Notes: generated by a model not told the origin, from the letters alone. A stretch of DNA of 37,606 bases from Candidatus Bathyarchaeia archaeon (GCA_049512935.1 JBEKWR010000018.1:1-37606), one strand, 5' to 3'. Positions 2,371 through 30,668 are shown, numbered from the stretch's first letter. Translations and numbers: made by a program.

Positions 2371-2589
2371 ATGGCTAAGACTGTTCATTTGGATGAGGAA
2401 GATCGTAAGCTTCTCGTTGAAACCAAGCAAAAGCTTGATGAAGCTACCAAGCTTATGGGGGAACTGATGGAAACCTTCGAGATTTTAAGCGACCCCGAAA
2501 TGGTAAAGGCTATCAAGGAAGGGCAAGAGGACATTAAAGCGGGAAGAGTAAAAGAGTTGCGCACGCTTCTGAAGGAAGAAGCCCGTTGA
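2371..2589 (+). CDS. relB: RelB/Phd-like antitoxin
   Basis: The C-terminal LMETFEILSDPEMVKAIKEGQEDIKAGRV is a typical antitoxin tail. It overlaps the relE start by 4 nt. Confidence 0.75.
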   Translation: MAKTVHLDEEDRKLLVETKQKLDEATKLMGELMETFEILSDPEMVKAIKEGQEDIKAGRVKELRTLLKEEAR

Positions 2590-2848
2590 AACCCAAGTAC
2601 AAGGTTGTTTTATCAGGACAGGCAGAGCATTTCTATAGGAAGTTAGAGGAAAAAGTCAAAGGTCAAGTTCGAGAGTGCTTTATCAGTTTAGAAGAAGATG
2701 CTTACAGTGGAAAACGGCTACATGGAGACTTAAAAGGAAAACAGTTTACGCGTGGGAAAGAACCTGCGCATAATCTATAAGGTCTCTGAGAAAAACAAAA
2801 TTGTTCATGTTGCAGCCCATAGGCCCAAGACGAAATGTCTACGAGTAA
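2586..2848 (+). pseudogene. relE: RelE/ParE-family toxin with two frameshifts
   Basis: YKVVLS...GKRLHGDLKGK, then a shift near 2740 gives SLRVGKNLRIIYKVSEKNKIVHVAA. A second shift near 2817 gives IGPRRNVYE* (TAA 2846-2848), a canonical RelE C-terminus. Confidence 0.85.
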
Positions 2849-2971
2849 TTCTTGCACCAAAACATTTTAACCGTTAATTCTATGCCAGTTGTTGATGATG
2901 ATGGAGTATTTTCTTTCTTTTCCCAAAACAAAACGTCTAGCAGAAAAATCAGGCAAAACTGAAGAAAAAAC

Positions 2972-3020
2972 CAAGAAAAGCGAATTGCCGCGGTTTATTC
3001 GAGTATTATTCTTGCGTTGA
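2972..3020 (-). repeat. Displaced copy of the acdB 3' end and downstream sequence (direct repeat of 3951-4001)
   Basis: CAAGAAAAGC-GAATTGCCGC-GGTTTATTCGAGTATTATTCTTGCGTTGA versus CAAGAAAAGCCGATTTGGCGCGGGTTTATTCAAGTATTATTCTTGCGTCGA. Both encode ARIILE* on the minus strand. Confidence 0.85.
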
Positions 3021-3065
3021 AGACAAGTGCCGACATCTTGAATTTTGAAAAAATCCTGTTGGTTA

Positions 3066-3509
3066 TCATTTGTTTTCTATGATTTGAAGAAATGCATTCA
3101 CTGAAACTAGCTGCGTTTTTTTGTAGCAAACTACTTTGAGGAGATGCTTGTCGCCGCTAACAATGTAATCTGCTCCTGCAGCTTGGGCGCATTCAATGAA
3201 CTTATTATCTGCTGGATGTTCCACAATAAAATTAATCCTTTTTGTAACTTTGACGAATTTCGCAATTTTCAGCACCGCCTCAATTAAATCTTCAATCTGT
3301 AGTCCTTCAGCTTCGCAGATATTCGTAAACTTGGGGTAAGCCAAAACCTGACTGATTTCTGCAACGATTTCTTCAGAGGTCAGGATGCTGACTTTGTTCC
3401 GTTCGGCTGCTTTTATGATTTCTGCAGGTTTGCCGCCCCAGAGCATTGCCGAGATCCAAACGTTTGTGTCAAGAACTACTTTTGGCTCTTGCTTGGTCGA
3501 TGAGGGCGT
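3066..3509 (-). CDS. vapC: PIN-domain (VapC-type) toxin; no canonical start codon upstream of the VVLDTN motif
   Basis: The frame extends upstream of the 3446 ATG as T(ACG)PSSTKQEPKVVLDTNVWISAMLWGG, up to a stop at 3510-3512. Later PIN motifs are DNKFIECA and DYIVSGDKHLL. Confidence 0.8.
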   Translation of the reverse strand, partial: TPSSTKQEPKVVLDTNVWISAMLWGGKPAEIIKAAERNKVSILTSEEIVAEISQVLAYPKFTNICEAEGLQIEDLIEAVLKIAKFVKVTKRINFIVEHPADNKFIECAQAAGADYIVSGDKHLLKVVCYKKTQLVSVNAFLQIIENK

Positions 3510-3729
3510 TTATGTCTTCCTCCGAAAGGCCCAACTGCCTAACTTTTGCCCAAACTGGCTTCATGGTTTCTTCAAAGGATTTATCAATTATTTTTTTTAG
3601 AACAACCATGTCATCAATGGCTATTGCCATAAGCTTCTCGCCTTTCTTGATGCTAGCTGCCTTGCGCACGTTCGCTGGGATAACCACCTGCCCTTTAGAG
3701 GAAACTTTAGTTGTGGACGCCTCCACCAT
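3469..3729 (-). CDS. vapB: AbrB/MazE/SpoVT-family antitoxin
   Basis: TTKVSSKGQVVIPANVRKAASIKKGEKL swapped-hairpin signature, a GGTGA SD upstream, and overlap with the PIN gene. Confidence 0.9.
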   Translation of the reverse strand: MVEASTTKVSSKGQVVIPANVRKAASIKKGEKLMAIAIDDMVVLKKIIDKSFEETMKPVWAKVRQLGLSEEDINALIDQARAKSSS

Positions 3730-3745
3730 GCTCTCACCGCGCTGT

Positions 3746-3768
3746 AGTAAGAATATTCTTACTTATAA
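3746..3768 (-). promoter_or_regulatory. Perfect 18-bp palindromic operator abutting the TATA box of the abrB-vapC operon
   Basis: AGTAAGAAT ATTCTTACT at 3746-3763; minus-strand TTATAAGT at 3768-3761. Confidence 0.75.
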
Positions 3769-3975
3769 CAATATTGCGAAAACAGCCTCGACTTAACAGG
3801 AAAACCCCTGAAAACGGGAGTTTGATTTCAGTCCAGTTTCCTTTCTACTTCAAAATACTTTTCCACATGACGCCTAGTAGACTCAAACGGGGCAGGGGGA
3901 ACTGCTGTTTTTTGATAAAAAAAACAGCGCAAAAATCGAAAACAAAAAAACAAGAAAAGCCGATTTGGCGCGGGT

Positions 3976-4680
3976 TTATTCAAGTATTATTCTTGCGTCG
4001 ACGGTTTTTGCGCCTTTCTGGTAAGCCAGGACCGGGTTGAGGTCTAACTCTTTGATTTCCGGGTTTTCCATCACGAGCCGCGAGGTGTTCAGCAGTATGG
4101 CGACTAGCGCGTCGATGTCTGCGGGGGGCGTGTTGCGGAACCCTTTCAGAAGCGGGTAAGCCTTAAGCTGCGTTATCATTTCCTTCGCGTCGTCAGCGGT
4201 TATGGGTGCGATGCGGAAGTTCACGTCTTTAAGCACTTCAACGAAGATTCCGCCCAAACCGAACATGATTGTCTGCCCAAACTGCGGGTCCTTAATCGCG
4301 CCGACGATGGTTTCCGTTGACTGCGGAGCCATTTCCTGAACGAGGATCCCGACGATTTTCGCGTTGGGATTGTAGTTTTTGACGTTTTCAAGGATTTTTT
4401 TGTAGGCACCCTCTACATCCTGGGGGGTCTGCAGGTTCACCATGACGCCGCCCGCGTCGGACTTGTGGATGACATCGGGAGAAACGATTTTCAAGACGAC
4501 GGGGTAACCGATTTCACTCGCGAACTGGGCCGCTTCAGCCTCGCTGGAGGCAACCTTGAACTTGGTAACTGGAATACCGTACTCGATGCAGACCTGCTTG
4601 GCTTCCGGCTCCAGAAGCGCGCGCCTGCCCTCTTTTTTCGCTTGACTTATGATTTTCTGAGACTCGTTCAAACTACACAT
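3976..4680 (-). CDS. acdB: Acetate/acyl-CoA ligase (ADP-forming) beta subunit, ATP-grasp
   Basis: IGYPVVLKIVSPDVIHKSDAGGV, DPQFG..IMFGLGGIFVE and ELDLNP...VDARI. The start is uncertain (4671 TTG, 4680 ATG or 4698). Confidence 0.92.
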   Translation of the reverse strand: MCSLNESQKIISQAKKEGRRALLEPEAKQVCIEYGIPVTKFKVASSEAEAAQFASEIGYPVVLKIVSPDVIHKSDAGGVMVNLQTPQDVEGAYKKILENVKNYNPNAKIVGILVQEMAPQSTETIVGAIKDPQFGQTIMFGLGGIFVEVLKDVNFRIAPITADDAKEMITQLKAYPLLKGFRNTPPADIDALVAILLNTSRLVMENPEIKELDLNPVLAYQKGAKTVDARIILE

Positions 4681-4870
4681 CTTCCATTTACAGCACAATC
4701 TTTTTGTGTAGTGACATAACTCATTGCTTTAAATCCGTTGCGATGCAACCACCGACTTTTCAAAAAACCGCCGCCCATATTGTGTAGTCGTGTTCAACAC
4801 CCCAACATTAGTGTTTATTGAGACATAATATTTAATAAGCGAACGGCATGAACCCTAATACAGACCCACC

Positions 4871-6601
4871 ATGCCAGAGCAAAACTTCAAAGAAAAACTC
4901 ACAGAAACATTCGCCAAGCTAAAGCCAAAGAAAAAAGCAACCAAACCAACAAAAGCAGCATCGGAAAACAAGAACACAGAGAAAAAAAAAGACGACGCTA
5001 AAAAAAGATTCAAATTTCCAAAAATAAGCCTAGGCCTCACAAAGAAAACGCTTGAACCAGAGCTCCCAACCGTAAATAAAGCCTTGCCCAAATCCTTGAA
5101 AATAGTTGACAAATACTCGCTCTACGAACCATTCGCGCAGGTTTTCATAGTCCAAGAACCCAAAACTGGCGAGTACAAGTACATTTTGGATGAGCTTCAA
5201 CTCGACAATTTTGAGCGGGGAATATACAACCGCGTCCTGGAAATATTGCTCGCCGAAATCGAGTCACCTAAAGAAGAAATCGCTGACCCCAGAAAGTTCT
5301 TCGCTCAAGAAGCTAAGAAAATCGTGGATAAATACCGCATTAGCCTCGGATGGCTGCCTGACGTTTCATGGTACAAGATCCTTTACCATGCAGAGCGGGA
5401 CCTTGTAGGCTTCGGCAAAATCGACCCTTTAATGCGCGACCCCAACATTGAAGACATCTCTTGCGACGGCGTTAACAAGTCAGTCTACATTTGGCACCGA
5501 ACCTTCGAAAGCATTGAAACCAACGTTCAGTTTGAGAACGACGAAATCCTCGATAACATGGTTGTAAAACTTGTCCACATGGCTGGGAAACACGTGAGTT
5601 CCGCCTTTCCAATAGTTGACGCATCGCTGCCAGGAAAACACCGTCTTGCTGTCTGTTACCGCCGAGAAATCACGCCCTTCGGCACAGCGTTTACCATCAG
5701 AAAATTCAGGGATGACCCGTACTCAATCATCGACTTAATCAACATCGGCACTTTCACCGAAGAACTCGCCGCTTACCTCTGGATTTGCCTTGAAAACCGC
5801 GCTTCAATCATGATTCTCGGCGGAACAGCTGCGGGGAAAACAACGGCGTTAAACGCGATGGCGTGCCTTATCAAGCCTGGAAGCAAAATCATCACCATTG
5901 AAGAAACTGCTGAGCTAAACTTATCCCATGAAAACTGGGTTTCACTTATTAGCCGTCAAAGCTATGGGTTGGGCGGAAACAGCGTTGGTGAAGTTCCCCT
6001 TTTTGACTTGGTAAAAGCGTCGATGAGACATCGCCCTGACATGTTGATTGTAGGTGAGGTCCGAGGACAAGAAGCGTACGTCCTATTCCAAGCCCTAGCG
6101 ACAGGTCACGGTGGCATGTGCACTATGCACGCTGAAAACTTGGATTCTGCCGTGAAGCGGTTAACTCAGAAACCCATGGAAATCTCTCCCGCTTACATTC
6201 CGTTAATGAACTTAGTCATCTCAGTTCAGCGTGTTCACTTGGTTAAATCCGGTGTGAAGAAGGCTTACCGACGTATTCTTTCTACTAATGAGATTGCAGG
6301 GTACGAAAACTACGTGAACATTTTCACTTGGGACCCGATTGCAGACGAGCAAGTATCCTTCTTAAGCAACAGCCCATTGTTTGCGTCTATTGCCAAAAAG
6401 ACCGGCATGACAACTGACGATCTGATTGAGGAATCGAAGAGACGAAGCGCAGTTCTACATTGGATGCGGCAACAAAAAATCCGAAGCTACAAAGAAGTAG
6501 CACACATAATCTCGGAGTATTACGCAAGGCCAAAGGAATTTTACCAAAAAATTCAAATGAGCAAGGAGGAAAACCCTGTTGCCGCTGTCCCAAAAGTTTG
6601 A
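4871..6601 (+). CDS. Type IV pilus/secretion assembly ATPase (PilB/FlaI/TadA-like)
   Basis: Walker A GGTAAGKTT, Asp box TIEETAEL, Walker B LIVGEVRG and His box TGHGGMCTMHA. It also has DPNIEDISCDG and a Lys-rich N-terminal extension. Confidence 0.95.
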   Translation: MPEQNFKEKLTETFAKLKPKKKATKPTKAASENKNTEKKKDDAKKRFKFPKISLGLTKKTLEPELPTVNKALPKSLKIVDKYSLYEPFAQVFIVQEPKTGEYKYILDELQLDNFERGIYNRVLEILLAEIESPKEEIADPRKFFAQEAKKIVDKYRISLGWLPDVSWYKILYHAERDLVGFGKIDPLMRDPNIEDISCDGVNKSVYIWHRTFESIETNVQFENDEILDNMVVKLVHMAGKHVSSAFPIVDASLPGKHRLAVCYRREITPFGTAFTIRKFRDDPYSIIDLINIGTFTEELAAYLWICLENRASIMILGGTAAGKTTALNAMACLIKPGSKIITIEETAELNLSHENWVSLISRQSYGLGGNSVGEVPLFDLVKASMRHRPDMLIVGEVRGQEAYVLFQALATGHGGMCTMHAENLDSAVKRLTQKPMEISPAYIPLMNLVISVQRVHLVKSGVKKAYRRILSTNEIAGYENYVNIFTWDPIADEQVSFLSNSPLFASIAKKTGMTTDDLIEESKRRSAVLHWMRQQKIRSYKEVAHIISEYYARPKEFYQKIQMSKEENPVAAVPKV

Positions 6602-8309
6602 GGCTTTCTCTTATCGTCTGTTCGGTCGGTTTGCTCCTTATTTTCAAGAACACGTTTACCCGATTAAGGGTTCCTTGGAGAAGGGACGGGTCAGAATTTT
6701 TCATGACGCTTACATTTCGATGATGTTCTTAGCTGTCCTACTTACTCTTCCTGTTTCAGTATTGGGTATAGTGCTTGTTTTGCTCACCCACGTTTTGCCC
6801 TTGCTGATTCTGGTTCCAATTCCCGCTTTTGTCGCTGTGGGATTCTTGTTCATGCCATCGTCCAGCGCCAGCGATAGAGCTACAGGCTTGGAGCGTGAGA
6901 TGCCTTTTGCGGCTGCTTACATTAGCGTCATGGCGTCAGGAGGCATTGCGCCGTACACGAGTTTTAAGCGTTTATCTGAAGTTGACTTGATGCCTGCTAT
7001 GCGTAGAGAGGCAAGGGACATAATGAAAGACGTGGAAGTTTTCGGTGTGGACCCTCTGTCAGCTCTTGAGCAGGCTGCAAAAAAGAATCCGCTTGACATA
7101 TTCAAAGACTTCTTGGGCGGCTATGCTTCAACCGTCGTTATTGGCGGTGACATCGGGCACTTTCTTGAACGCAAAGCAGAAGACATATTCAAGACCCGTG
7201 CATTGCGTGTCAAAGCGGCTGCTGAACGTCTCGGGATGCTGCTGGAAACTTTCATCATCGTCATGGTCATGATGTCGCTTTGCTTCTACATTCTTTTCGC
7301 TGTACAGCAGATTCAAGGCGGATCTGCCCAAACTAATACAAGCCTTTCAACTTTCTCAGGAATCCTCATGTACACTTACCTTTTCACGCCGCTGCTATCG
7401 GTAATGTTCATTTATATGGCCCACACCATGCAGCCGAAGACACCTGTGATTGAGATGAAGCCATACAAAATCTTCGCCGCTTCCTCTGTCGTAGGAATAT
7501 TCGTATTGCTGCTACTCACCAATTTCTTTGGCGCCGCACAGCTGCCCCTCTTCACCACTTTGATCAAATGGGGTCTTGACTTGCCAATAGCCATAGCTGC
7601 CGCCCTTTGCATCTCCGCGGCCCCAGCGGGAATCGTGCACATGAAAATGGCTAAGAAACAAGCGAGTTTAGAGGCGGGGGTCACTAGTTTTCTGCGTGAC
7701 CTAACAGAAGTTCGAAAAACGGGTCTTTCACCTGAAAAATGCATAGAAAGCTTGTCCAAACGCGACTACGGATCCTTCAGCAAAGAACTGCGAAAAATCA
7801 GCGCTGAAATTTCCTGGGGAATTCCTCTGAAGCGGGTTATGATGGATTTTCTGCATCGGACGAAAAGCTGGATGGTTCAGATAGTTATGTTTCTGCTGGT
7901 GGAAACTATTGACGTAGGCGGGGGAACCATCGCCATGATTGAATCGTTGGCCAACTTTAACAATTTAACTGATGAAGTGGAAAGAGAAAAGAAAATGTCG
8001 GTTCGCCCGTACATTATGATGCCGTATTTAGCTGCGATTCTTCTTGTCGCCACCACTACGATGATGTTGAGTTTCACAACTGGCTTCAACGCGACAGCGA
8101 CAACTGGTGTTTCAGCAACAAACGCAGCGGCAAGAGGCTTGGCGCAGACAATATTCCTTACTTCAGTGGTGTTCAACAGTTACCTCATCGGCATAGTCGC
8201 CGGAAAAATCAGCGAGGAATCTATCGCTGCCGGATTCAAACATGCCGCAATCCTCGTTGTCATCGCGGTAATTGCAGCAAAACTCATCCCCATGTTCATA
8301 AAGCTCTAA
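6579..8309 (+). CDS. Type IV pilus membrane platform protein (TadC/FlaJ-like, two T2SSF domains)
   Basis: Two repeats of a cytoplasmic domain (LEREMPFAAAY..VMASGG; SFLRDLTEVRKTGLS) followed by TM bundles. Overlaps the ATPase gene. Confidence 0.92.
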   Translation: MPLSQKFEAFSYRLFGRFAPYFQEHVYPIKGSLEKGRVRIFHDAYISMMFLAVLLTLPVSVLGIVLVLLTHVLPLLILVPIPAFVAVGFLFMPSSSASDRATGLEREMPFAAAYISVMASGGIAPYTSFKRLSEVDLMPAMRREARDIMKDVEVFGVDPLSALEQAAKKNPLDIFKDFLGGYASTVVIGGDIGHFLERKAEDIFKTRALRVKAAAERLGMLLETFIIVMVMMSLCFYILFAVQQIQGGSAQTNTSLSTFSGILMYTYLFTPLLSVMFIYMAHTMQPKTPVIEMKPYKIFAASSVVGIFVLLLLTNFFGAAQLPLFTTLIKWGLDLPIAIAAALCISAAPAGIVHMKMAKKQASLEAGVTSFLRDLTEVRKTGLSPEKCIESLSKRDYGSFSKELRKISAEISWGIPLKRVMMDFLHRTKSWMVQIVMFLLVETIDVGGGTIAMIESLANFNNLTDEVEREKKMSVRPYIMMPYLAAILLVATTTMMLSFTTGFNATATTGVSATNAAARGLAQTIFLTSVVFNSYLIGIVAGKISEESIAAGFKHAAILVVIAVIAAKLIPMFIKL

Positions 8310-8353
8310 TGGAGGACTAAAAAAAGCTGTTTAGCAAAGCTCAAAAAAGAACC

Positions 8354-9211
8354 TTGCGAAAAAATAAGCGCGCGGTTACTCCTGCAATTTCCACGATTAT
8401 CATAACCGCGGCTCTTGTTGTTTTAGTCCTTGTAACCGTAAGCTTTGCCGACAACGAATTGACCATTCAAATGGCTCAAGGAGAATTTAGCTCAAGCAAA
8501 AATTTCATGCAGTCAACAGGAACTCAGATAGACAACGTAGCGTGGACTATTGGGAGAACAGAAGCAGTTGATTACATCGCTAAATACGGGGATGTATCGT
8601 TCACACCTGGAGTCCTAAATTACACTTTCGAAGTCAGCTACAACGATGGAGCGTCATGGCAACTTATCTACAACTGTACAACCGGCATGATTATGTACAA
8701 CATGCCAGCAAGCGTCTACAGTATAGGGAATGATTGCTTCAGCAGGATAGTGCCCGCGAGCAGTGGTTCATTCTTGCAACAGGGCGTTTCAGCGCCTGTC
8801 TACCAAGTATTTGAAGTAGAAAACGCGGTTGCTTACGGAGCCTATGCGAGAATAGTAACTGTGCCCACTGTGAGAGTGATCAACTCGACCCTGCCAGGTG
8901 AAAGCTCCAGTGAAAGCTACTACGAGTTTTACGTGCCCTCTCTCGTGACTGCTTCAAGCCCGTATCTTTCGCAATCGCTCTCACTCACAGGAGCCGGGTT
9001 GAACATGGCGGCAGCCAGCAACAGCGCGCAGAGTAGCTATCAAGTACGAATAACGGCGACGATTCCCATGGGTGTAATTCCATCTGGTTTCAAAAGTTTC
9101 AGTAATTCATTCTTTAACTTTGACCATACCACAGAAACTTTGTCTGTTCCTGCTGGATCTTTTGTAGAAATTTACAACGGTAACGTAAGGGTTTCGATAG
9201 GATTAACTTAG
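8354..9211 (+). CDS. Pilin-like protein with class III signal peptide
   Basis: RKNKRA/VTPAISTIIITAALVVLVLV: basic leader, cleavage after Ala and a hydrophobic helix, then a Ser/Thr-rich beta domain. Confidence 0.8.
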   Translation: MRKNKRAVTPAISTIIITAALVVLVLVTVSFADNELTIQMAQGEFSSSKNFMQSTGTQIDNVAWTIGRTEAVDYIAKYGDVSFTPGVLNYTFEVSYNDGASWQLIYNCTTGMIMYNMPASVYSIGNDCFSRIVPASSGSFLQQGVSAPVYQVFEVENAVAYGAYARIVTVPTVRVINSTLPGESSSESYYEFYVPSLVTASSPYLSQSLSLTGAGLNMAAASNSAQSSYQVRITATIPMGVIPSGFKSFSNSFFNFDHTTETLSVPAGSFVEIYNGNVRVSIGLT

Positions 9212-9227
9212 CGAGAGGTGTGATGAA

Positions 9228-9710
9228 GTGGTCAACGTAACAATCGAGTATATGATTTTGATTCCGCTGTTGATTCTTCAGATATTCCTGCTTCCATTCG
9301 CTGCAAGTATGATGATGAATTATTGGTCGACTTCAAGCGAGACAATTGCGCTTCAGGACGCAGCTAGCCAACTTGGCAGTGCAATCCAGCAGCTGTATCT
9401 ATTCGTAAATAATCCAGCCTTGTCATCCGCCACGGTAACGAACGATCTTGGAATCCCAGCGTACATAAACGGCTACGCTTACACTGGCACTGCAACCTTA
9501 ACTTCCGTTTTTGGCTCCGGCTCAGAGCAAACTTTGAATTTGACTCTCTCGTTGACTAGAACTTCGGTTTCGGCTTCAGCAATCGTTGTTTTGGGACAAA
9601 ACGCCCAGTGGAACTCCAGTCTCAGGACTTTTACGAGTAACTCTGCTAGCACCAGTATTAACGCCCACAAATACAGCAACAGTATGATTCTGCTGTATTT
9701 TGCAACATAG
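9228..9710 (+). CDS. Small pilin-like protein
   Basis: N-terminal VTIEYMILIPLLILQIFLL pilin-type helix with Glu, a GAGGTG SD, and position within the pilus operon. Confidence 0.7.
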   Translation: MVNVTIEYMILIPLLILQIFLLPFAASMMMNYWSTSSETIALQDAASQLGSAIQQLYLFVNNPALSSATVTNDLGIPAYINGYAYTGTATLTSVFGSGSEQTLNLTLSLTRTSVSASAIVVLGQNAQWNSSLRTFTSNSASTSINAHKYSNSMILLYFAT

Positions 9711-9721
9711 GAGGACATGAC

Positions 9722-10933: not shown

Positions 10934-10934
10934 C

Positions 10935-12287: not shown

Positions 12288-12288
12288 A

Positions 12289-15723: not shown

Positions 15724-15760
15724 CTGTAATGCCTACGCATGAATAGCTACTTTAGCATCT

Positions 15761-15990: not shown

Positions 15991-16119
15991 GTTTCGGAGC
16001 CCTGAAAATATGACCACTACGTCCCCTGTATCTGGAATAAGTATTTAATGTTCATATTTCATAAATACTAATCACAGATACTTTTAGCTAAATCGAAAGA
16101 AACACAGGAAGGGGCTAAA

Positions 16120-22835: not shown

Positions 22836-24128
22836 ATGCGTTCACAAAAGACCAACGCTGCCCTCTTCGTTCTCTTAACGCTGATGCTTCTTGCAACTTT
22901 CGCGCCCTTTTTAGCTAACAAGGCGTACGCGCAGACCAGCGGGAACTACTGGATCACGGTGAAGCCGACAGGTGATTCCCAATTTTACACCACGATCGGA
23001 AGAAACTGGACGTTGTCGTTTGAGGCGGTGTGGAGCTACGGCAGCAGTTCAGGTCAACTCGTAAGCAACGCGATGGTTGCGATGCAGGTTTCAGGAGAAA
23101 AAGAAGGCGCGTTAGGCAGTCTTGATCTAAATTCGACGTCTGGCGAGTTCTCATTCAATTATTCTTCAACAACCGCCGACATCATAACCTTCACGCCATC
23201 AAAGGTGGTGACGCAAGATGGAACCCAATACAGTTCAGCCCTCATGAAAAACAGTGGAAATCAAACGTACGGTCTACTGGCGAAGTCAGTCACCGTTTGG
23301 TGGGACACATTCCAAGTTTCCCTCGTAAATTACAACACTGACGCAGCGGGTACCGTGTCGGTCACGGTGAACGTTACCTACCTGTTGCTTCCCGAGGCAG
23401 GCTTAACCCTCCCAGCGCAGGACACTTATTCAAACCAGACTTTTCTTCCCAAGATAGCTAGCCAAGCAAACGTAGCCATCAACGGCATAACAGCCCAAGA
23501 AACGTCGGTGCCTGGCGAGTATTCAGCGACGGTTTCCACGGCGTTCCCCACGGCATACGTGCTTGTAGCCGCCTCACAGAACGGTTGGACCACAACCCAC
23601 ACTGCCTTTGGCTTCACGCAGAAAGCAAACGAAACGCTCTGGGGTTACGGAGTAATTATCGGTTTAATCCTTGTGGCTATCTTGGCGTCGATATTTTTGG
23701 TTATGCGTAGAAAACCAGCGGAGCCTGCTGCCTTTGGGAGAAAAGGAAGGTTCCCCTTGATAGGCGGCGTTTTGCTGTTGCTTACTTCAGTTTTTAGCCT
23801 TTACTGGGGTGCCGTCGCGGTGGAGGCTACTTTACACGGGTTTAACTGGGCAATTATGGCGGTGGCGGGTTTGGGCGCCTTCGCCTTCGGTGTTTTAGGC
23901 GGCGTTCTGTCGCTGAAAAAGAAGAACGAAGCGCTGGTTATCTTTGCCGTGTGCACACTCTTGGTTGTTAACGTCGTTGTGCTCAAATACGCGTTTGACA
24001 CTTACGCGCTAACGGTTCCTTGGCTGTTTATCTTAGCAGCAACAGCCGTTTCTATAGTGAGCGGAGTTTTAATCACAAACTCAGACGAACAATTCTCCAA
24101 ACAAACAACCCACGACTCACCAGTCTAA
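22836..24128 (+). CDS. Secreted-domain membrane protein (signal peptide, beta-rich ectodomain, about five C-terminal TM helices)
   Basis: Signal peptide ending AYA, a Thr/Ser-rich ectodomain with NxS/T sequons and a hydrophobic C-terminal bundle. Confidence 0.7.
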   Translation: MRSQKTNAALFVLLTLMLLATFAPFLANKAYAQTSGNYWITVKPTGDSQFYTTIGRNWTLSFEAVWSYGSSSGQLVSNAMVAMQVSGEKEGALGSLDLNSTSGEFSFNYSSTTADIITFTPSKVVTQDGTQYSSALMKNSGNQTYGLLAKSVTVWWDTFQVSLVNYNTDAAGTVSVTVNVTYLLLPEAGLTLPAQDTYSNQTFLPKIASQANVAINGITAQETSVPGEYSATVSTAFPTAYVLVAASQNGWTTTHTAFGFTQKANETLWGYGVIIGLILVAILASIFLVMRRKPAEPAAFGRKGRFPLIGGVLLLLTSVFSLYWGAVAVEATLHGFNWAIMAVAGLGAFAFGVLGGVLSLKKKNEALVIFAVCTLLVVNVVVLKYAFDTYALTVPWLFILAATAVSIVSGVLITNSDEQFSKQTTHDSPV

Positions 24129-24267
24129 AAATCATGGCGCCCGACAGATTCCGCAGCAAGTACGCATCAGCAGAAAGCGTGCACTCATAGAAGCCATCAA
24201 AGAAACCCATCGACAACAAAAAGCGCCTGCCTAGCAAAGATCCAAGCGGAAAACGCCAAACTCAATC

Positions 24268-24579
24268 CTATGCAGTCATGGCTTTCTTCTTCAAGAAAAT
24301 TGCATCTACCAAGTATCTCTTATGACCTTTCTCTGTCTTACCTTCTACGTGCCTTTGACAAACAACTTCAACACTAGTTTGCTCTGCCGCCTTTCTTAAC
24401 TTCACCAACGCAGTGTTGAGGCTCACAGAAATATTCAGAACCAACTTTGCCGTGGAATTCTGGCTTTCCTCAAACTCATCCACTATCTCCTTCCAAGTCC
24501 CCTCTGGAACCGGTGAAGACTCCTTTTCTTCGGGCAATTTTGCTTCAAAATCGAATTCCCATGGTCTCTTATCCGCCAT
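24268..24579 (-). CDS. Small hypothetical protein (about 103 aa)
   Basis: Protein-like charged alpha/beta pattern from the ATG at 24579, with a TATA-like TTTTATATA upstream. No family recognised. Confidence 0.55.
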   Translation of the reverse strand: MADKRPWEFDFEAKLPEEKESSPVPEGTWKEIVDEFEESQNSTAKLVLNISVSLNTALVKLRKAAEQTSVEVVCQRHVEGKTEKGHKRYLVDAIFLKKKAMTA

Positions 24580-24834
24580 TTTCCATCTACTCCAAGTTAA
24601 CCCATTATGACTTCCAACAACCAACTATATAAAACATTTATGGCATGACATAAAAACCACTTAAAATCCCACAACCAATAATTCCATCTTCCTTAAAAGC
24701 AGCCGAGAAAACAATCAAAGGGCGTGAGGCTGCTCAATTCCCTTTTTGATGCATTTTATGCAAGAACTATTCTTGATAGTCGAGTAGGAAAATTCTTTAG
24801 GGTAGTGCTGCTCTTTTGGCTATTGAGATTGAAA

Positions 24835-24936
24835 ATGACCTTTGTTGTAAAGGTTACCCTGAAAGGTCAAGCAACCATTCTGTCAGACAATCCGCATTTT
24901 GACGTAATACCGGAAACCAAGAGAAGCTGGATCTGA
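24835..24936 (+). pseudogene. Collapsed abrB-vapC relic (antitoxin N-terminus fused to PIN C-terminus)
   Basis: MTFVVKVTLKGQATI (AbrB start) is joined directly to LSDNPHFDVIPETKRSWI*, which resembles the S.D.HFD.I...KR.W end of VapC proteins. Confidence 0.65.
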
Positions 24937-24970
24937 GAAAACCCCAGCCATCCCTCGATTTTTGAAATAA

Positions 24971-25028
24971 TGGTGCCGGGGGTGGGACTTGAACCCGTAA
25001 AGCACTGCGCCAGAAGATCTTGTCCTCC
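24971..25028 (-). pseudogene. tRNA-Leu 3' fragment, copy 1 (att-like remnant)
   Basis: The reverse complement reads GAGGAC--AAGATCTTCTGGCGCAGTGCTTTACGGGTTCAAGTCCCACCCCCGGCACCA. The anticodon loop lacks 2 nt and there is no 5' half. Confidence 0.8.
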
Positions 25029-25231
25029 TCTATCTTGGGTAACGGGTGGGTGTCTAAAGATTTAGTGCAAGCAGGACGTCATCGGTTGTTAAGGTTAATT
25101 CATTCGAATTCTCTAAATGCAAACAATGCCTTGGTTGTCTTTTTTTCTATAACAGCTTTTTTTGGCGAAACGGTTTGTTGTCGTGAAAATGTAAAAACTT
25201 TATTAAGATTTTTGTAGCAAATAAGCAACCA

Positions 25232-26341
25232 TTGCTTGAGGTAACCCATATTCAGAGTAGCGATAACTCAAAAAGTAGTGTCTTTCCACTCCCCGTAGAC
25301 CTAATCAGAACAGTCGCCATAATACTGGTCGTAACATATCATGTTGTTAACGAGTTCACGGGAGGAGTACCGCCGCTAAATTCTACAATGTACTTCGTTT
25401 ATTGGTCAGACCTCTTTCTGCCCTTCGTTGCGCTTGGTGTCCCTTTGTTTTTTATGTTAAGCGGCTCACTACTTCTTCAGCCATCTAAGGTCGACGAGCC
25501 AATCAGGGTGTTTCTTAAAAAAAGGTTAGCTCGCATTGGAACTGCTTTTGTTTTTTGGAGTGTCATCTACTTCATATGGGACTATTATGCGAATCATGTA
25601 GCGTTGACCCCTTATTCCATAACTCAATCGCTTTTGCAAGGAGGCGCCTATAACCAATTCTGGTTTATTTATGCAATCATGGGTCTATACCTGATAACGC
25701 CTGTCCTGCGAATGGTCGTTAAAACCGCCAACAGAAACATTCTGCGGTACATCATAATCCTATGGTTTATGGGGGCAATTGTTCCACCGTTTGTTCAGTT
25801 GGTAACAGGACTAAAAATTGATAATTCCCTGTTGCTGTTCGGTGGATACATCGGATACTTCGTTTTAGGCTTATATCTTATGGGCGTTAAAGTTAAAACT
25901 AAAATTCTTTTGGCGCTTCTGGCGGCAGGCTTAGCCTTAACTTTTGCTGGACTAATATTATTGGAGGTCCCTTTCAATAAATTAGGAGTCGTCTACGGAA
26001 ACAACTTTTTCTTCGATGGCTATAGCTCCGTGACTGTGGTTTTGTCTTCTGTTGCCGCTTTTCTGCTTCTAAGCAAGTTTCCAAGGAGCTGGCCTGGGAA
26101 CAGCAAACCTTGGTTTAGCAGACTGGTACGTTTTATAAGCGAAAACACTTTGGCAATCTTTTTCATGCATCAAATAGTTTTGCAGGTACTCAACAGTGGG
26201 ACATTAGGAATACGAATTAGCGTGCTAAATATTCCCTCACCAATCGAAATTCCAATAGCTACCGTATGCACTCTCTTTATCTGCTTAGGCTTAATTGCGG
26301 TCATAAAAAAAATTCCTATTGGCGGAAAATTAATTGGATAA
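25232..26341 (+). CDS. Acyltransferase-3 family membrane O-acyltransferase
   Basis: DLIRTVAIILVVTYH, GVPLFFMLSG.LLL, KKRLARI, FWFIY..MGLYLITP and I.F.H; about 10 TM helices. Confidence 0.9.
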   Translation: MLEVTHIQSSDNSKSSVFPLPVDLIRTVAIILVVTYHVVNEFTGGVPPLNSTMYFVYWSDLFLPFVALGVPLFFMLSGSLLLQPSKVDEPIRVFLKKRLARIGTAFVFWSVIYFIWDYYANHVALTPYSITQSLLQGGAYNQFWFIYAIMGLYLITPVLRMVVKTANRNILRYIIILWFMGAIVPPFVQLVTGLKIDNSLLLFGGYIGYFVLGLYLMGVKVKTKILLALLAAGLALTFAGLILLEVPFNKLGVVYGNNFFFDGYSSVTVVLSSVAAFLLLSKFPRSWPGNSKPWFSRLVRFISENTLAIFFMHQIVLQVLNSGTLGIRISVLNIPSPIEIPIATVCTLFICLGLIAVIKKIPIGGKLIG

Positions 26342-26390
26342 CTGTTTTTGCCAAAATCTAAATTAGGCTCATTGGAGAAAGCTACTTCAT

Positions 26391-27050
26391 ATGGCTCTAA
26401 GCAAGCGAAAAACTCTTCTTGCCGCAGTTGTCCTTATAGTCATATTGGCGTCCCTATCTATTTTTGAGTTTTACGAATTGCATGTTACTAGCCCTATACG
26501 AGTTGCCTGCATTGGAGACAGCATAACACGAGGTACAGAATACACGATTGATCTTTGGAAGTCACTTGGACAGAACTATATTGTATGCGATTTGGGTGTT
26601 GGCGGAGCCGCAGTGGCTCAGGTCACTGGCATGAGTTATGCCCGTCAGGCTGCTTTTGGAGTCGCATTGAATTTCAAACCAAACATAGTAATCATTATGT
26701 TGGGAACTAATGATGCAATAACTTCTCTAAACGAAACCAACGCTGCCTTTATCGCGGACTATTCGTCTCTTGTTCACAGTTTCCAATCACTTAGTACAAA
26801 ACCCACGGTTTGGCTTGTAGAGCCCCCTCCAATTTACGATAACACAATGTCTTATAGTAATGGCATTCTTATCAAAAACGTAATCCCAAACATCATACAA
26901 GTCGCCAACCAAACACATACTCACCTTATCGATGCTTATACGCCGCTCCTCAATCACCCAGAACTTTTTGTTGACGGCATACATCCCAGCGCCGACGGTG
27001 CCAAAATAATCGCCCAAGCAGTCTATACAGCATTGATTTCCCAAAAATAA
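26391..27050 (+). CDS. Membrane-anchored SGNH/GDSL hydrolase
   Basis: N-terminal TM helix; blocks GDSIT, GVGG, LGTND and DGIHP are intact. Confidence 0.9.
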   Translation: MALSKRKTLLAAVVLIVILASLSIFEFYELHVTSPIRVACIGDSITRGTEYTIDLWKSLGQNYIVCDLGVGGAAVAQVTGMSYARQAAFGVALNFKPNIVIIMLGTNDAITSLNETNAAFIADYSSLVHSFQSLSTKPTVWLVEPPPIYDNTMSYSNGILIKNVIPNIIQVANQTHTHLIDAYTPLLNHPELFVDGIHPSADGAKIIAQAVYTALISQK

Positions 27051-27108
27051 TTGTTGCGGTGGGGCTTAACGTCCCTCGTAAGCGTTACTATCGGGGGCAG
27101 TTGCTTTT

Positions 27109-27183
27109 TGGTGGCTGAGTGGGACTTGAAGACGGGTACTCAGCTTGCGAAACTGTTGTCCTACCGAACTATACTATAACCGC
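27109..27183 (-). pseudogene. Degenerate full-length tRNA-like sequence (tRNA-Gly-like 5' part)
   Basis: The reverse complement reads GCGGTTA TA GTAT AGTTCGGTA GGAC A ACAGT TTCGCAA GCTGA GTAC CCGTC TTCAAGT CCCAC TCAGCC A CCA. tRNA spacing, D-loop GG, T-loop and CCA are retained, but the T and acceptor stems do not pair. Confidence 0.6.
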
Positions 27184-27238
27184 GCTTTGCCGTTTTGTTA
27201 GAGTTGCGCCGACATATGGTTTTGTGGTATTTGTTATC

Positions 27239-28093
27239 TTACCTTAAAAGTCTCTCAGCATCAACCGTGTAGCCGCAGTTGGTGAGTTCACGTATGAGGG
27301 TAAGCTTCCAACTGTCGCGGTCATCTAGGGCTGTGAATTTAACGCCTTCAAAATCTATTGGAAAGGCAAAGTTTGAGCTTTCCCGATAGAAGGCAAGCAC
27401 CTTATCCTTCCCAAGTTTCCCCAATAAGAAGCCAAACATCAAAGTCACGTCTTGCTTTGGGATGCGTTCGCGTTTTGTAGCTTCTTCACCCTTCGGGTAA
27501 ACGTAAACGTCAGGCGAAAGCAACACCAAAGCAAAGCCCACATCGGCGTAGTCTGCGAAGCGGTCGACGATTTTTTTGCCCTGGACGGGTTCTTCACTCA
27601 TGACTATGGCGGCGAGACCGAGTTTTCTCAAAGCTCCAGTGATGGTTTGCTTCATTATTTCATCTGTTCCAGAAACAACGATTATTCGCCGCGGTATGCC
27701 ACTTGGGGTTAAAAATACGGGTTGAGCTTGTGTGGCTTGCGCCGATTTTTTTTGGGTAACAGCCACAAATTCCTCAGTGCATAGGTAAACGCCTTTGACT
27801 TTGCCTTTGAGGATGTTGTCGATGAGGTATTTTTTGTCTTTAGCTGCTATGAGGCTTTCATGGTTGGGTAAGTGCAGTTGGTCAGCTGTTTGGTAGGACC
27901 AAAAGATAACGATTTTGGCGACTTTGATTGGGTTGAGGAGACGTCCCATAAACCAGAAGGGTTCGCTGTTGGCAAATGGTTCTTGGATTTTCCCTATTAG
28001 TTCTGCGTGGGAAACGTTGAAGCGAAAGCCAGACTTGTCAGGCTCACTGTACTCGATGTAGATGTGATATTTGGGCGTCTGCACGTTAATCAA
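27239..28093 (-). CDS. TIR-like nucleotide-binding domain protein (CAP12/Pycsar-effector-type TIR) with an uncharacterised N-terminal domain
   Basis: RIIVVSGTDE...LRKLGL..I.M.E.P.QG..IVDRF...ADVGFALVLLSPD...GFLLGKLGK.KV...FP.DFEGV...WKL.L.REL...GY matches this TIR pattern. The start is uncertain (28084, 28093 or 28171). Confidence 0.8.
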   Translation of the reverse strand: MINVQTPKYHIYIEYSEPDKSGFRFNVSHAELIGKIQEPFANSEPFWFMGRLLNPIKVAKIVIFWSYQTADQLHLPNHESLIAAKDKKYLIDNILKGKVKGVYLCTEEFVAVTQKKSAQATQAQPVFLTPSGIPRRIIVVSGTDEIMKQTITGALRKLGLAAIVMSEEPVQGKKIVDRFADYADVGFALVLLSPDVYVYPKGEEATKRERIPKQDVTLMFGFLLGKLGKDKVLAFYRESSNFAFPIDFEGVKFTALDDRDSWKLTLIRELTNCGYTVDAERLLR

Positions 28094-28246
28094 GCGTAGT
28101 GTGGGTGGTCTAGGCACTAAAACGTTGCCCTGTGCCTTCTGCTTGTGGCAGTCTCCACAAACAGCCAGCAACTCTTAGCAATTCTAGGCTTAAATACAAG
28201 AACCTAGATGACATTCGCTATAAACTACTGAGGATGAATCGGGAAA

Positions 28247-29119
28247 ATGCTTGCTTTAGAACTGAGCAATGTTTCCTCTGGCTATAATAAGCAAGTTGTA
28301 TTGCATGATATAAGCTTTAAACTGCAAGAGCCATCAATCTACGTTGTTTTGGGGCCAAACGGCGTGGGCAAGACAACTCTTTTTAGGACAATCGCGGGTA
28401 TTCTGGAGCCATTTAGCGGCAATATTCTTCTTGACGGACAAAACATAACTAGCTCACGTGAAGCCCGTAAAAAGCTGAGTTTCTTCTCCCAAAACGCAAT
28501 GCCTGAAGAGATGACAGTGTACCAGGCACTCAAGTTCTATTCCAACTTGGAGGGAGGAGACCCAGACAAGGTACTTGAATTGCTCGACCTCAGCGAACTG
28601 AGGGATAAACGATTTTCAGATCTTTCTCAGGGACAAAAGAAGAGGGCGTCACTAGCGAAAGTGTTTTTGTGCGAAAGAGACCTCTACCTATTAGATGAAC
28701 CCACGGCAAATCTGGACCCAGTAGTTTCAAAAGAAATTCGTGATATTATATTAAAGCTAAGCAAGGACAAAATGATTCTGTACTCTTCGCATAATCTTTA
28801 TGAAGCAACCGACATCGGCACTTACCTGGTCCTAATCAAGAATGGCTCAGTTTCAACGTTTGATAGAATCTCAAACATCAAGCCCAAGAATTACCGTGTA
28901 GGCATCAAAACCCAAACGGACATAACAAAAATTGTCGATGCCAAACGCGAGGGCGACTACTACGTCTTAAGCGTATCCAGCCCTGAAGAAGCAGGACTTA
29001 CCCTCAAAAAACTCGTTGAAAAAGGCGTCTTAGTCACTGAAATGCGCCAATTAGATAATCCATTGCAGGAACTATTTGAATCACCCAGCACTCAAAACGC
29101 AGGGAGGCATGAGAAATGA
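28247..29119 (+). CDS. ABC transporter ATP-binding protein (ABC-2/multidrug type)
   Basis: GPNGVGKTT, LSQGQ, LLDEPTANLD and SSH. Confidence 0.93.
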   Translation: MLALELSNVSSGYNKQVVLHDISFKLQEPSIYVVLGPNGVGKTTLFRTIAGILEPFSGNILLDGQNITSSREARKKLSFFSQNAMPEEMTVYQALKFYSNLEGGDPDKVLELLDLSELRDKRFSDLSQGQKKRASLAKVFLCERDLYLLDEPTANLDPVVSKEIRDIILKLSKDKMILYSSHNLYEATDIGTYLVLIKNGSVSTFDRISNIKPKNYRVGIKTQTDITKIVDAKREGDYYVLSVSSPEEAGLTLKKLVEKGVLVTEMRQLDNPLQELFESPSTQNAGRHEK

Positions 29120-29796
29120 ACAATACGTTGGTTTTTGTAAAGCGTAGCCTCAACCTAAGTAAAATATTGACAGGAATGGGGATGGGTCTTGCAGGCCTTG
29201 GGATCTTTGTGATATTTGCCCTATCTCTTCTTGCAGGAAGTTCAAGTGCGGCGGTCTTTGTCCTTCCGGTCTCGTTTATGTCTCTTGGGCTTCTAATTTT
29301 TGCAACACCGGTTACACTTCTTTACGTTTATGATAAGAACAACGGTGTGTTGGAGTATTTGCTTTCTCTTGGTTGGAATCAAAGCGATATCTTCAAGCAA
29401 TACCTGAAAGCCGCTCTCTTCCTTGCCCTAATCCTCTTCATAGGCGAAGGCGCCGCGATTCTGATTGCAGGTGCTATTGCAGGGTTAATGGCGGTCTTTG
29501 CTTTGGATTTGTTGATGCTGTTTCTAACGGCATTTATGGGTTTTTCCGTGGTTTCGTTGGTTACTGTGGCTATGATGGCTTTTAGCTCGTTACAGAAGCA
29601 ACGAGTGGGCGCTAACACTCCTCTCGGCATGGCGATTGGCGTCCCGTTCATATTTCCGACCTTTTACCTTTCTTTCCTCGGATTCAGCCCAGAACTGATA
29701 ATTTACCTATTGCTTTGCACTTTAGCCGCTGCCCTGTCAGTTGCGTTGCTGCTTCTGTCAAGCAGGCTTATTAGAAGAGAAAAAATGCTACCATAA
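29116..29796 (+). CDS. ABC-2-type permease
   Basis: Six TM helices, the YDKNNGVLEYLLSL motif and an ATGA overlap with the ATPase gene. Confidence 0.8.
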   Translation: MNNTLVFVKRSLNLSKILTGMGMGLAGLGIFVIFALSLLAGSSSAAVFVLPVSFMSLGLLIFATPVTLLYVYDKNNGVLEYLLSLGWNQSDIFKQYLKAALFLALILFIGEGAAILIAGAIAGLMAVFALDLLMLFLTAFMGFSVVSLVTVAMMAFSSLQKQRVGANTPLGMAIGVPFIFPTFYLSFLGFSPELIIYLLLCTLAAALSVALLLLSSRLIRREKMLP

Positions 29797-30009
29797 CATA
29801 GAAAGAGTTGCCAACTCATCAAACAGCGGTCGTTTTTTAAGCAAGATGTTATATCTTCTGCGCTGAATTTGGCGGGGGAGCACATGCTCCAGGCTATTCT
29901 CTATCCGCCCCCCTCACCCAAAAGTTGGGAATGCGGTTTTCTAAATTGACCCATAAACGAGGCAGAAGAAACCTTAAAACTCACCTGTTGAGAAAACCCG
30001 GCTTTTTAG

Positions 30010-30068
30010 TGGTGCCGGGGGTGGGACATAGCCCACGAAGCCCTGCGCCAGAGGATCTTAAGTCCTCC
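30010..30068 (-). pseudogene. tRNA-Leu(TAA) 3' fragment, copy 2 (att-like remnant)
   Basis: The reverse complement reads GAGGA CTTAAGA TCCTC TGGCGCAGGGCTTC GTGGG CTATGT CCCAC CCCCGGC A CCA. It has an intact anticodon arm (TAA), a long variable arm and a damaged T loop, but no D arm or 5' acceptor strand. Confidence 0.85.
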
Positions 30069-30138
30069 TCCATCAAAATGTTGGAAGGTTATCAGGGAAA
30101 GGGAAAGCTTAAGAATTTCCAAGCTCATATGCAAACAT

Positions 30139-30342
30139 ATGCTCAGATATAGGGTTATAATTGAAAAGGATGAAGATGGCGTTCTTATCGCTAGAGTTCC
30201 CGACCTGCCTGGATGCGCTACCGAAGGGAACACAAAGCAAGAACTTATGAAAAACGTTAGGGAAGCAATACAGGCGTACCTTGAGGCGCTAAAGCAGCAC
30301 GGCGAGCCAGTTCCTATTGAAACGGTGCAAATCATTGTTTAG
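30139..30342 (+). CDS. hicB: HicB-family antitoxin (short form, no DNA-binding domain)
   Basis: YRVIIEKDEDG..IARVPDLPGCATEG.T..E...NVREAI..YLE. Confidence 0.93.
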   Translation: MLRYRVIIEKDEDGVLIARVPDLPGCATEGNTKQELMKNVREAIQAYLEALKQHGEPVPIETVQIIV

Positions 30343-30592
30343 ATTAACGCCTGTTAATTATGATAAAGTAGTCAAGGCTCTCGTAGGCATCGGCTACACA
30401 GTTAACAATCAGAAGGGCAGCCACATAGTTTTGCGACTTTCAGACAAAGAAAAATACATTTCATTGTTCGGTTGTAGAAAAAATGAGACCATGATAGTTG
30501 TTCCTGCACACAAACCGCTTGGGAAAGGAATGTTACGCACCATTATCATGGAAGCTGACCTTTCAGTTGAAGAATTCAATAAACTGCTTTGA
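30335..30592 (+). CDS. hicA: HicA-family mRNA interferase toxin
   Basis: VVKAL..IGY....QKGSHIVL...VVPAHKPLGKGMLRTII.EA.LSVEEF. The TTG at 30335 overlaps the hicB end; the ORF track starts at 30317. Confidence 0.9.
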   Translation: MFRLTPVNYDKVVKALVGIGYTVNNQKGSHIVLRLSDKEKYISLFGCRKNETMIVVPAHKPLGKGMLRTIIMEADLSVEEFNKLL

Positions 30593-30638
30593 AAACCAAG
30601 ACACTCCGTAGTTAGCATTTTTCTTTTTGAGTTTATAG

Positions 30639-30668
30639 TGGTGCCGGGGGTGGGACTTGAACCCACGA
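30639..30668 (-). pseudogene. tRNA 3' fragment, copy 3 (T arm, acceptor strand and CCA)
   Basis: The reverse complement reads TCGTGGGTTCAAGTCCCACCCCCGGCACCA, the same end as copies 1 and 2. Confidence 0.8.

Follow-up and report, generated by a model that had tools for sequence, protein, structure and literature searches.

Toxin–antitoxin pairs between repeated tRNA and protein gene 3' ends in a Bathyarchaeia genome: candidate integrase-less mini-cassettes

The DNA analyzed here, hereafter the window, is a 37,606-nucleotide contig (C18; JBEKWR010000018.1:1-37606) of Candidatus Bathyarchaeia archaeon (GCA_049512935.1), in which four toxin–antitoxin (TA) loci lie beside direct repeats of gene 3' ends; these loci are considered below as candidate integrase-less mini-cassettes. 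The source genome (G000) is an archaeal metagenome-assembled genome (MAG) of 2.3 Mb in 49 contigs, 93% complete, and the metagenome runs that contain window DNA are from peat and wetland. Pfam matches in the window include genes typical of archaea, namely the archaeosine tRNA-guanine transglycosylase (arcTGT), PAC2, Lsm, and a type IV pilus/prepilin peptidase cluster. For comparison, about 80 genomes of the same genus were sampled (G003, G004, and others, referred to as relatives). A preliminary description of the window had placed an abrB-vapC pair in a 981-bp unit between repeats of the acdB 3' end, a hicBA pair in a 629-bp unit between tRNA 3' ends, a collapsed vapBC against another tRNA end, and a relBE pair next to the acdB repeat. 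All four observations of TA loci and their repeats were borne out, the acdB unit by alignment and Pfam.

The target gene at the first site is acdB-like (ATP-grasp_5; positions 3976-4698, minus strand; Pfam E 1.4e-89). Local alignment revealed a proximal repeat, which is the true acdB 3' end with its T-rich tail (3941-4001, minus), and a distal copy of this 3' end at 2962-3020 (minus). The two copies are 59-61 nt long and each consists of the last 23 nt of the gene, the TAA stop codon, and about 35 T-rich nt; they share 53 identical positions, with two indels, at a spacing of 981. The single difference in the coding part is synonymous and affects a Leu codon, which reads CTC in the distal copy, as in the acdB genes of relatives, and CTT in the proximal one. 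Between the repeats are an abrB/MazE-type antitoxin of 86 aa (3469-3729, minus; MazE_antitoxin, E 4.7e-8) and a vapC toxin (3066-3446, minus; PIN_3, E 1.4e-14) whose open frame of 147 aa reaches up to 3509. The ancestral vapC start at 3507-3509 is ACG in the window and in G019 and ATG in G003, a change that is synonymous in the overlapping abrB frame. Contigs of independent samples span the repeats with 0 differences; two of them (X4 and X5) bridge both copies and a third (X3) the distal copy, which is thus bridged in three independent samples.

Orthologues of acdB were found in 40 of the 41 genomes searched, G000 included; of the 40 relatives searched, 29 supplied acdB loci for comparison. 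Three of these 29 loci (G003, G016, G004) are empty, with a radical-SAM gene about 110 nt after acdB. In the window the same gene lies 2.13 kb from acdB, and the abrB-vapC unit is therefore read as an insertion. A fourth locus (G019) has a different PIN and RHH pair (vapBC) after acdB. Both empty sites (3/29) and swapped TA content (1/29), which the preliminary description had proposed to look for at acdB, were thus found, and the TA units at acdB are supported as insertions. The acdB repeat was absent from all 29 acdB loci examined in relatives. The core of the abrB-vapC unit (window 3034-3794) occurs at other places in 11 relatives, with 72-88% identity.

Adjoining the distal acdB repeat is a relBE-like pair. 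Its antitoxin is a DUF2683-like protein of 72 aa (2371-2589, plus strand) whose Pfam match (DUF2683, E 8e-4) is under the cut-off, and its relE/ParE-like toxin (2586-2877, plus) is frameshifted, the frame 2586-2780 being continued in another frame at 2743-2877. The 64-aa open reading frame (ORF) at 2586-2780 gave no Pfam match, and the C-terminus encoded in frame 2743-2877 was labeled RelE-like (RVGKNLRIIYKV...) by a motif reading by eye. In a tRNA-Thr cassette of contig C5, a DUF2683 member (E 8e-8) has a ParE toxin as its partner. The claimed stacking of relBE next to the acdB repeat held as adjacency; a second bounding repeat above shuffle level was not found, and a third acdB repeat beyond the relBE unit was rejected, the best local scores being 18 and 23 versus shuffle maxima of 27 and 26. 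As a separate observation in this flank, contigs of other samples cease to match the window at positions below about 2080 and to either side of 2888-2920 (loose ends, four runs). These breaks, near 2080 and 2887-2922, point to additional variation among strains, or else to a short shared element, on the relBE side.

The second TA region lies in an island of about 9.9 kb (22547-32480) between PAC2 (21743-22495) and arcTGT (32522-34150). The gap between these two genes is <1 kb in 16 of the 30 relatives searched and ≤170 bp in nine of these 16. Since PAC2 and arcTGT are near-adjacent in these relatives and 9.9 kb apart here, the tRNA-Leu(UAA) fragments between them were assigned to an orphan array in a strain-specific island. 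Three fragments, all on the minus strand, were recognized by comparison with copies on contig C3. The one at 24967-25040 is a degraded 3' part that lacks 2 nt of the anticodon loop (84% identity over 74-76 nt), the one at 30005-30080 runs from the end of the D-loop intron to CCA and has a degraded T-loop (94% over 70 nt), and the one at 30635-30668 retains 33 nt of T-arm, acceptor strand, and CCA (100% over 33 nt). The last corresponds in position to the 3' end of an intact tRNA in G004 and, as far as this alignment indicates, is the remainder of the array's own tRNA. Neither ARAGORN nor Rfam found a tRNA gene in the window, and the three pieces are consequently regarded as fragments rather than genes. 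Docking at a tRNA gene, as first proposed for this region, did not hold for the window, where the tRNA ends belong to the orphan array in the 9.9-kb island. An assignment of the 24967 fragment to tRNA-Leu(CAA) was rejected, as it is a UAA copy with the 2-nt deletion. An intact tRNA-Leu(UAA) with a D-loop intron is located on contig C3 (about 145440-145563, minus), where it has three TA cassettes of its own. This gene was missed by ARAGORN, which reported 42 tRNAs in total for G000, and by the Rfam tRNA model.

Read in the tRNA direction, the array comprises a dispersed repeat of about 200 bp, the 33-nt tail, hicBA, the 75-nt fragment, a 5-kb unit, the 74-nt fragment, and the collapsed vapBC. 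The hicB antitoxin (30139-30342, plus; HicB_lk_antitox, E 2.7e-12) is followed by an apparently intact hicA toxin with a TTG start (30317-30592, plus; HicA_toxin, E 4.5e-11), which has homologues of similar length in G004, G013, and G063. The pair is enclosed by the fragments at 30005-30080 and 30635-30668 (spacing 629), with 554 bp between the repeats and spacers of 42 and 58 nt. The collapsed vapBC (24835-24936, plus) adjoins the fragment at 24967-25040 and fuses AbrB codons 1-12 to the last 21 PIN codons, as judged against an intact G004 pair of AbrB (76 aa) and PIN (132 aa) at locus L054; the region shows DNA homology to the tRNA-Leu arrays of G004 and G019. The 5-kb repeat-bounded unit (25046-30005) has non-TA cargo by Pfam: an acyltransferase_3, a GDSL lipase, a TIR-domain protein, an ABC ATPase, and a membrane protein. 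Within this unit, the TIR gene (27239-28171, minus; 310 aa, CAP12/Pycsar-type TIR domain) shows 96% DNA identity to G016 and 90% to G020, compared with about 80% for core genes, and from this identity it looks like a recently exchanged defence-like gene.

Comparison within the genus disclosed that the hicBA module recurs as a unit. In G063, the match covers window 30008-30668, exactly repeat to repeat, at 93% identity, and the module is an orphan in a different context; in G004, it covers window 30036-30668 at 91% identity and stands behind an intact tRNA-Leu(UAA). A cassette with 83% identity lies in G013 behind tRNA-Leu(UAG), with a 50-nt repeat of UAG type. Flanking core genes are 79-83% identical to the window (G063 being outside the core comparison), and hicBA homology ends at the repeats. 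Within G000, a vapBC pair is present at two places (72% nucleotide identity), flanked by tRNA-Cys repeats at the first and tRNA-Leu repeats at the second. These alignments support the view that repeat-to-repeat modules have been shared between genomes, at an identity above that of core genes.

The last 40 nt of tRNA-Leu(UAA), with ≤3 mismatches, were present in 52 of 63 genus genomes, G000 included, and at least two copies occurred in nine. Among the loci fetched, TA units bounded by tRNA-Leu fragments were seen in G004, G019, G057, G047, and G063 and at three orphan places in G051. Their TA cargo comprises AbrB-PIN, RHH-PIN, HicAB, and MNT-HEPN pairs, and a unit in G042 carries non-TA cargo. 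In six of seven further tRNA-Leu(UAA) loci in relatives, neither a second copy nor an integrase was present within about 3 kb; the exception was G016. A winged-helix protein of 117-119 aa with weak HTH_7/HTH_54 matches is recurrent in the tRNA-Leu arrays of G004, G019, G047, and G051 (L054:4176-4535, L055:6423-6782, L087:873-1226, L089:1175-1528); two of these genes abut a tRNA fragment, and the gene is absent from the window. Conceivable roles for it are regulation of the cassette or assistance in recombination as an accessory protein.

To survey the whole of G000, same-strand repeats 150-6000 bp apart were collected by genome self-comparison, followed by ORF reading and Pfam searches, and a locus was scored as flanked when its best direct repeat reached at least 34 bits, with 500 random 650-bp sites as the control. 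Flanking direct repeats were present at 14 of 39 TA loci versus 10 of the 500 random sites (Fisher p 1e-11). Repeats had led to six of the 39 loci in the first place, and the PIN/AbrB family search alone gives 9/33. The genome-wide survey that the preliminary description had suggested thus revealed an enrichment, and units behind both tRNA and protein-coding gene 3' ends, as it had claimed, proved to be a genome-wide pattern. At least four units are located at tRNA-Cys, one with PIN and an 80-aa partner and another with a vapBC pair. The three units at tRNA-Leu(UAA) on C3 have a 73-nt repeat and then shorter ones. Other tRNA genes have DUF4258 with DUF2283 (tRNA-Leu(GAG)), ParE with DUF2683 (tRNA-Thr, contig C5), AbrB with PIN (tRNA-Gly(UCC)), and a zinc-ribbon ORF (tRNA-Val, with an integrase C-terminal fragment on the tRNA's other side). 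A 175-nt repeat containing a tRNA-Sec-like gene bounds AbrB with an ORF that is PIN-like but without a significant match to Pfam PIN. Among protein genes, the 3' end of deoxyhypusine synthase (dhs) has MNT with HEPN and a 34-nt perfect core, a further gene with a 92-nt repeat has AbrB with PIN_3, and the 3' end of a hisC-like gene has a 105-nt repeat with one 494-aa ORF. The two 175-nt copies (C6 50303-50475 and 51341-51514) are 90% identical, and each holds a tRNA-like gene with anticodon UCA, which ARAGORN calls tRNA-SeC.

The repeats are long and variable (17-175 nt), and the coding ones span stop codons. All tRNA repeats end at, or ≤9 nt from, the tRNA 3' end and start in the T-arm (25-30 nt), in the anticodon stem or loop (39-53 nt), or in the D-loop intron (73 nt); we take these to be the usual attachment (att) positions of tyrosine integrases. 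The perfect 34-nt core at dhs sits in a copy of about 134 nt of the last 45 codons, which is 78% identical and has a frameshift, and six of the seven differences in the hisC-like repeat fall at third codon positions. By these substitution patterns, the dhs and hisC-like coding repeats are homeologous, derived from two lineages, and not fresh duplicates. At acdB, the 35 nt past the stop codon are common to both window copies and missing from the empty sites of relatives. Together, the anatomy of the tRNA repeats, the homeologous coding repeats, and the 35 nt after the acdB stop argue for Campbell-type (att × att) recombination rather than duplication at a staggered cut. Crenarchaeal att repeats measuring 29-69 bp, along with tandem arrays, have been reported (PMC6563490). 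No shared motif at the cassette borders was evident by eye in 15 units, no formal motif search having been made, and no inverted repeats ≥18 nt were found at cassette ends in the window.

No integrase was found among the 39 window ORFs by Pfam, and family searches of the genome for tyrosine and serine recombinases (PF00589 and PF16795 among the tyrosine searches), rve, and TnpB gave no match on the window contig. The absence of visible integrases and transposases noted at the outset accordingly stands for this contig and does not extend to the genus. G000 encodes one full tyrosine integrase of 511 aa, which at its 3' end runs into 25 nt that copy the tRNA-Gln tail; an integrase-less unit of 4.6 kb lies between this integrase and the tRNA. 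A C-terminal integrase fragment is present beside tRNA-Val. In G016, a 438-aa tyrosine integrase and a large island (>16 kb) lie directly at tRNA-Leu(UAA). A distal att site was found neither for the G016 island within 18 kb nor for the tRNA-Gln integrase element of G000 within about 29 kb. The integrases at tRNA-Leu(UAA) in G016 and at tRNA-Gln in G000 indicate that enzymes for at least some of these sites circulate in the genus. Viral contigs gave 0 matches to the 32-nt tRNA-Leu tail, and a viral helper was rejected as a candidate, the sole match of a 27-nt degenerate tail being an unrelated, high-GC phage-like contig with its own tRNA. For archaea, the review PMC8371274 describes excision by exogenous integrases, recombination of low specificity, and the exchange of modules within tandem arrays, and PMC3293823 proposes that mobile elements scatter tRNA fragments.

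The reading toward which we lean is that these units are integrase-less, att-bounded mini-cassettes akin to cis-mobilizable elements (CIMEs), with one type II TA pair as the usual cargo, which would be made by Campbell-type recombination and passed between lineages. A resident 3' end of a tRNA or protein gene would recombine with a homologous copy on incoming DNA to give att-type junction repeats. The recombinase would probably be supplied in trans by tyrosine-integrase elements sharing the att site; alternatively, host homologous recombination over the repeats of 25-175 nt might suffice. TA addiction could then hold the cassette in place, and cassettes would move between lineages of the genus as repeat-to-repeat modules and accumulate in tandem arrays. 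The tRNA-Leu pieces of the window would represent such an array at an ectopic place, having lost its tRNA. The pairs presumably decay after arrival. In the window, the MazE/AbrB-PIN_3 and HicB-HicA pairs exceed Pfam cut-offs, the relBE pair combines a weak antitoxin match with a frameshifted toxin, and two of the four pairs have a lesion in the toxin with the antitoxin frame intact. As for the earlier claim of toxin-first decay with three of four toxins disabled, toxin-side lesions are real in relE (frameshift) and in vapC (ATG to ACG start), and the third pair is collapsed; vapC is only a candidate for a disabled toxin, as the ACG start also occurs in the G019 homologue.

A bolder version, which we advance only tentatively and consider doubtful, is an integron-like archaeal cassette system without a linked integrase. 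Here, a gene 3' piece, above all the last 30-75 nt of tRNA-Leu, would act as a portable recombination site, and a TA pair with its piece would form a mini-cassette able to enter any copy of the site, whether in a tRNA or orphan. Arrays would be seeded at new places and cassettes shuffled across the genus, with the enzyme borrowed from passing integrase elements and the TA pair serving as a retention device.

Several results weigh against mobile mini-cassettes. A flanking repeat ≥18 nt was present at only one of the 11 abrB-vapC homologues in relatives, and repeats are therefore not a constant property of these cassettes. The read-level checks, which rest on assembled contigs of four runs over window 1-7000, showed no empty allele and no circle junction, although rare forms are not visible in contigs. 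In G013, the distal repeat differs by one base from the resident tRNA and resembles the Leu(UAA) type, an arrangement not accounted for by a simple Campbell scheme. For the protein-gene sites, acdB and dhs included, no specific recombinase was found, and G000 has one full tyrosine integrase versus at least 14 repeat-bounded cassettes. Further points fit static remnants, that is, units left after deletions in large integrase islands, no longer mobile, whose TA pairs were kept because their loss is harmful: the integrase island (>16 kb) at tRNA-Leu(UAA) in G016, arrays with pseudogenes, larger non-TA units, and mixed cargo (G019), and an apparent transposase fragment in the G019 array, identified by a motif reading by eye with no Pfam match.

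Erosion of this kind would also account for the C-terminal integrase fragment beside tRNA-Val and for the decayed toxins and collapsed pair of the window. In addition, it is an established concept for archaea that genes can be captured following loss of a split integrase (She et al., cited in PMC8371274). Because integrase islands and fragments are present in the genus, an origin from eroded islands, which the preliminary description had named as the finding that would overturn it, is a serious rival; nevertheless, we regard it as possible and rather unlikely. The units are tight, as illustrated by the 554 bp and the short spacers of hicBA. A single module recurs, repeat to repeat, in three contexts and is 91-93% identical, more than core genes are; the same cassette family is found with different att types, and no integrase fragments border the TA cassettes examined, tRNA-Val excepted.

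Insertion with long target duplication, in which a staggered break is filled in and both repeats are copies of resident sequence without any att site or integrase, appears very improbable. Repeats of 17-175 nt that span stop codons around a unit without a mobility gene would fit this process. The dhs and hisC-like repeats are homeologous copies (synonymous-biased or 78% identical, with a perfect core at dhs), and the tRNA repeats start and end at what are presumably integrase att positions. Both repeats should be copies of the empty allele, which is not the case for the post-stop part at acdB, where the 35 nt are missing from the empty sites of relatives, or for dhs, where identity outside the core is 78%. 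The analogy is with restriction-modification (RM) systems of bacteria (Nobusato 2000; Furuta 2010). PMC2853133 describes these as addictive pairs without a mobility gene, for which empty sites exist and whose long direct repeats run over a gene end, often across a start or stop site; no archaeal case passed the filters of that study. The units here share the addictive two-gene module, the long gene-end repeats, and the empty sites, and differ in having homeologous repeats at integrase-type att positions, TA cargo, and an archaeal host.

The preliminary description had also allowed for repeats produced by assembly. In a MAG of 49 contigs, short repeats can mislead assemblers or binning; this origin is contradicted at acdB by the independent-sample contigs that bridge both repeats with 0 differences, and the same architectures are found in relatives, including the single-contig genomes G003, G014, and G057, so that an artefact is hardly credible. 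Finally, a split-tRNA reading, in which each of the three tRNA-Leu pieces would encode one half of a tRNA joined in trans, was prompted by the lack of a 5' part in all pieces and of any tRNA-Leu(UAA) in the ARAGORN report; it can be dismissed on account of the intact intron-bearing gene on C3, the degradation of the window pieces (2-nt anticodon-loop loss, broken T-loop, or 33 nt left), and a genome in which no 5' half matching the acceptor strand and no leader/trailer complement were found.

Among known systems, those closest to the mini-cassettes include CIMEs. CIMEs arise by site-specific accretion at the att sites of integrative and conjugative elements or integrative and mobilizable elements in Streptococcus, have no recombination module of their own, and presumably depend on a neighbor's integrase. 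As in CIMEs, the units here lie between att repeats at 3' ends of tRNA and protein genes, lack a recombination or transfer module, and form tandem arrays with integrase-bearing elements; an integrase element at the same att site was seen for tRNA-Leu(UAA) (G016) and tRNA-Gln (G000), and none was found for acdB or other protein-gene sites. They differ in their archaeal host, a far smaller size (0.4-1.5 kb), cargo that is mostly a single TA pair, the many att sites per genome, orphan arrays away from the target gene, and no known conjugation context. A second likeness is to archaeal tyrosine-integrase elements (SSV, pNOB8, pTN3, and SNJ2 types, including gene capture and arrays of integrated mobile genetic elements), which share the tRNA and protein 3'-end targets and the tandem arrays. 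Direct repeats copying the 3' part of the target, empty sites in relatives, and repeat copies from two parents, as expected of Campbell-type elements, were all found, whereas an integrase gene inside the element was not, and the TA units contain neither an integrase nor int(N)/int(C) fragments. Integrated elements of archaea target tRNA genes and 3'-distal parts of protein genes and form arrays (PMC6563490). The TA units here are smaller than any described in the parts available of PMC6563490, PMC8371274, and PMC3293823, where TA pairs as the dominant sole cargo are likewise not described.

Integron cassettes, which in chromosomal integrons often carry TA pairs, resemble these units in forming arrays of small, promoter-poor cassettes with one recombination site each, in shuffling between genomes, and in TA cargo that stabilizes the array. 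In contrast, no IntI, attI, or attC-like hairpin was found here, the repeat is a piece of a host gene, and there is no linked integrase. Classification as integron cassettes was rejected for want of IntI and attC, the borders being gene-end copies with no inverted repeat ≥18 nt. A literature search found no description of TA-only, att-bounded cassettes; supplementary tables were outside the search, and the result is not proof of absence. We regard archaeal TA-sized, integrase-less att-bounded cassettes, orphan arrays included, as a variant of known att-bounded elements.

The spread of chromosomal TA pairs is mostly attributed to plasmids, phages, integrons, or islands. In the archaeon studied here, roughly one TA locus in three bears the scar of site-specific insertion and yet is the size of a TA pair. 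Should they prove to be genuine mini-cassettes with a borrowed integrase, no smaller integrative unit would have been described for archaea, TA mobility would have a concrete, testable route, and orphan att arrays would explain how tRNA fragments came to be scattered, together with small defence genes like the TIR gene, in archaeal chromosomes. If they are only eroded islands, they would still show how strongly TA addiction shapes island survival.

The dispersed repeat at the head of the orphan array (30734-30955, plus) has no Rfam match and occupies the place of the tRNA's 5' two thirds. At least 30 copies of this repeat of about 200 bp are present in G000 at 77-90% identity (for example, C11:41920-42102, C8:62091-62315, and C27:16122-16348). 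One strand of the repeat is rich in A and C. Of its four GAAAGTCGCAAC boxes, one forms the hairpin GGAAAGT-CGCA-ACTTTCC. Several copies are situated immediately upstream of tRNA genes in antisense orientation, and weaker copies occur in relatives. The repeat could be an element resembling a miniature inverted-repeat transposable element or a shared regulatory module. Elsewhere in G000, weak partial tRNA matches at C2:131292, C8:62626, and C4:46289 resemble additional tRNA genes carrying non-canonical introns. An archaeal type IV pilus-like cluster (4871-16938) separates the two TA regions of the window and is no part of the finding; it has a T2SSE ATPase, a T2SSF membrane protein, a 1150-aa protein, a prepilin peptidase, and several ORFs without Pfam matches.

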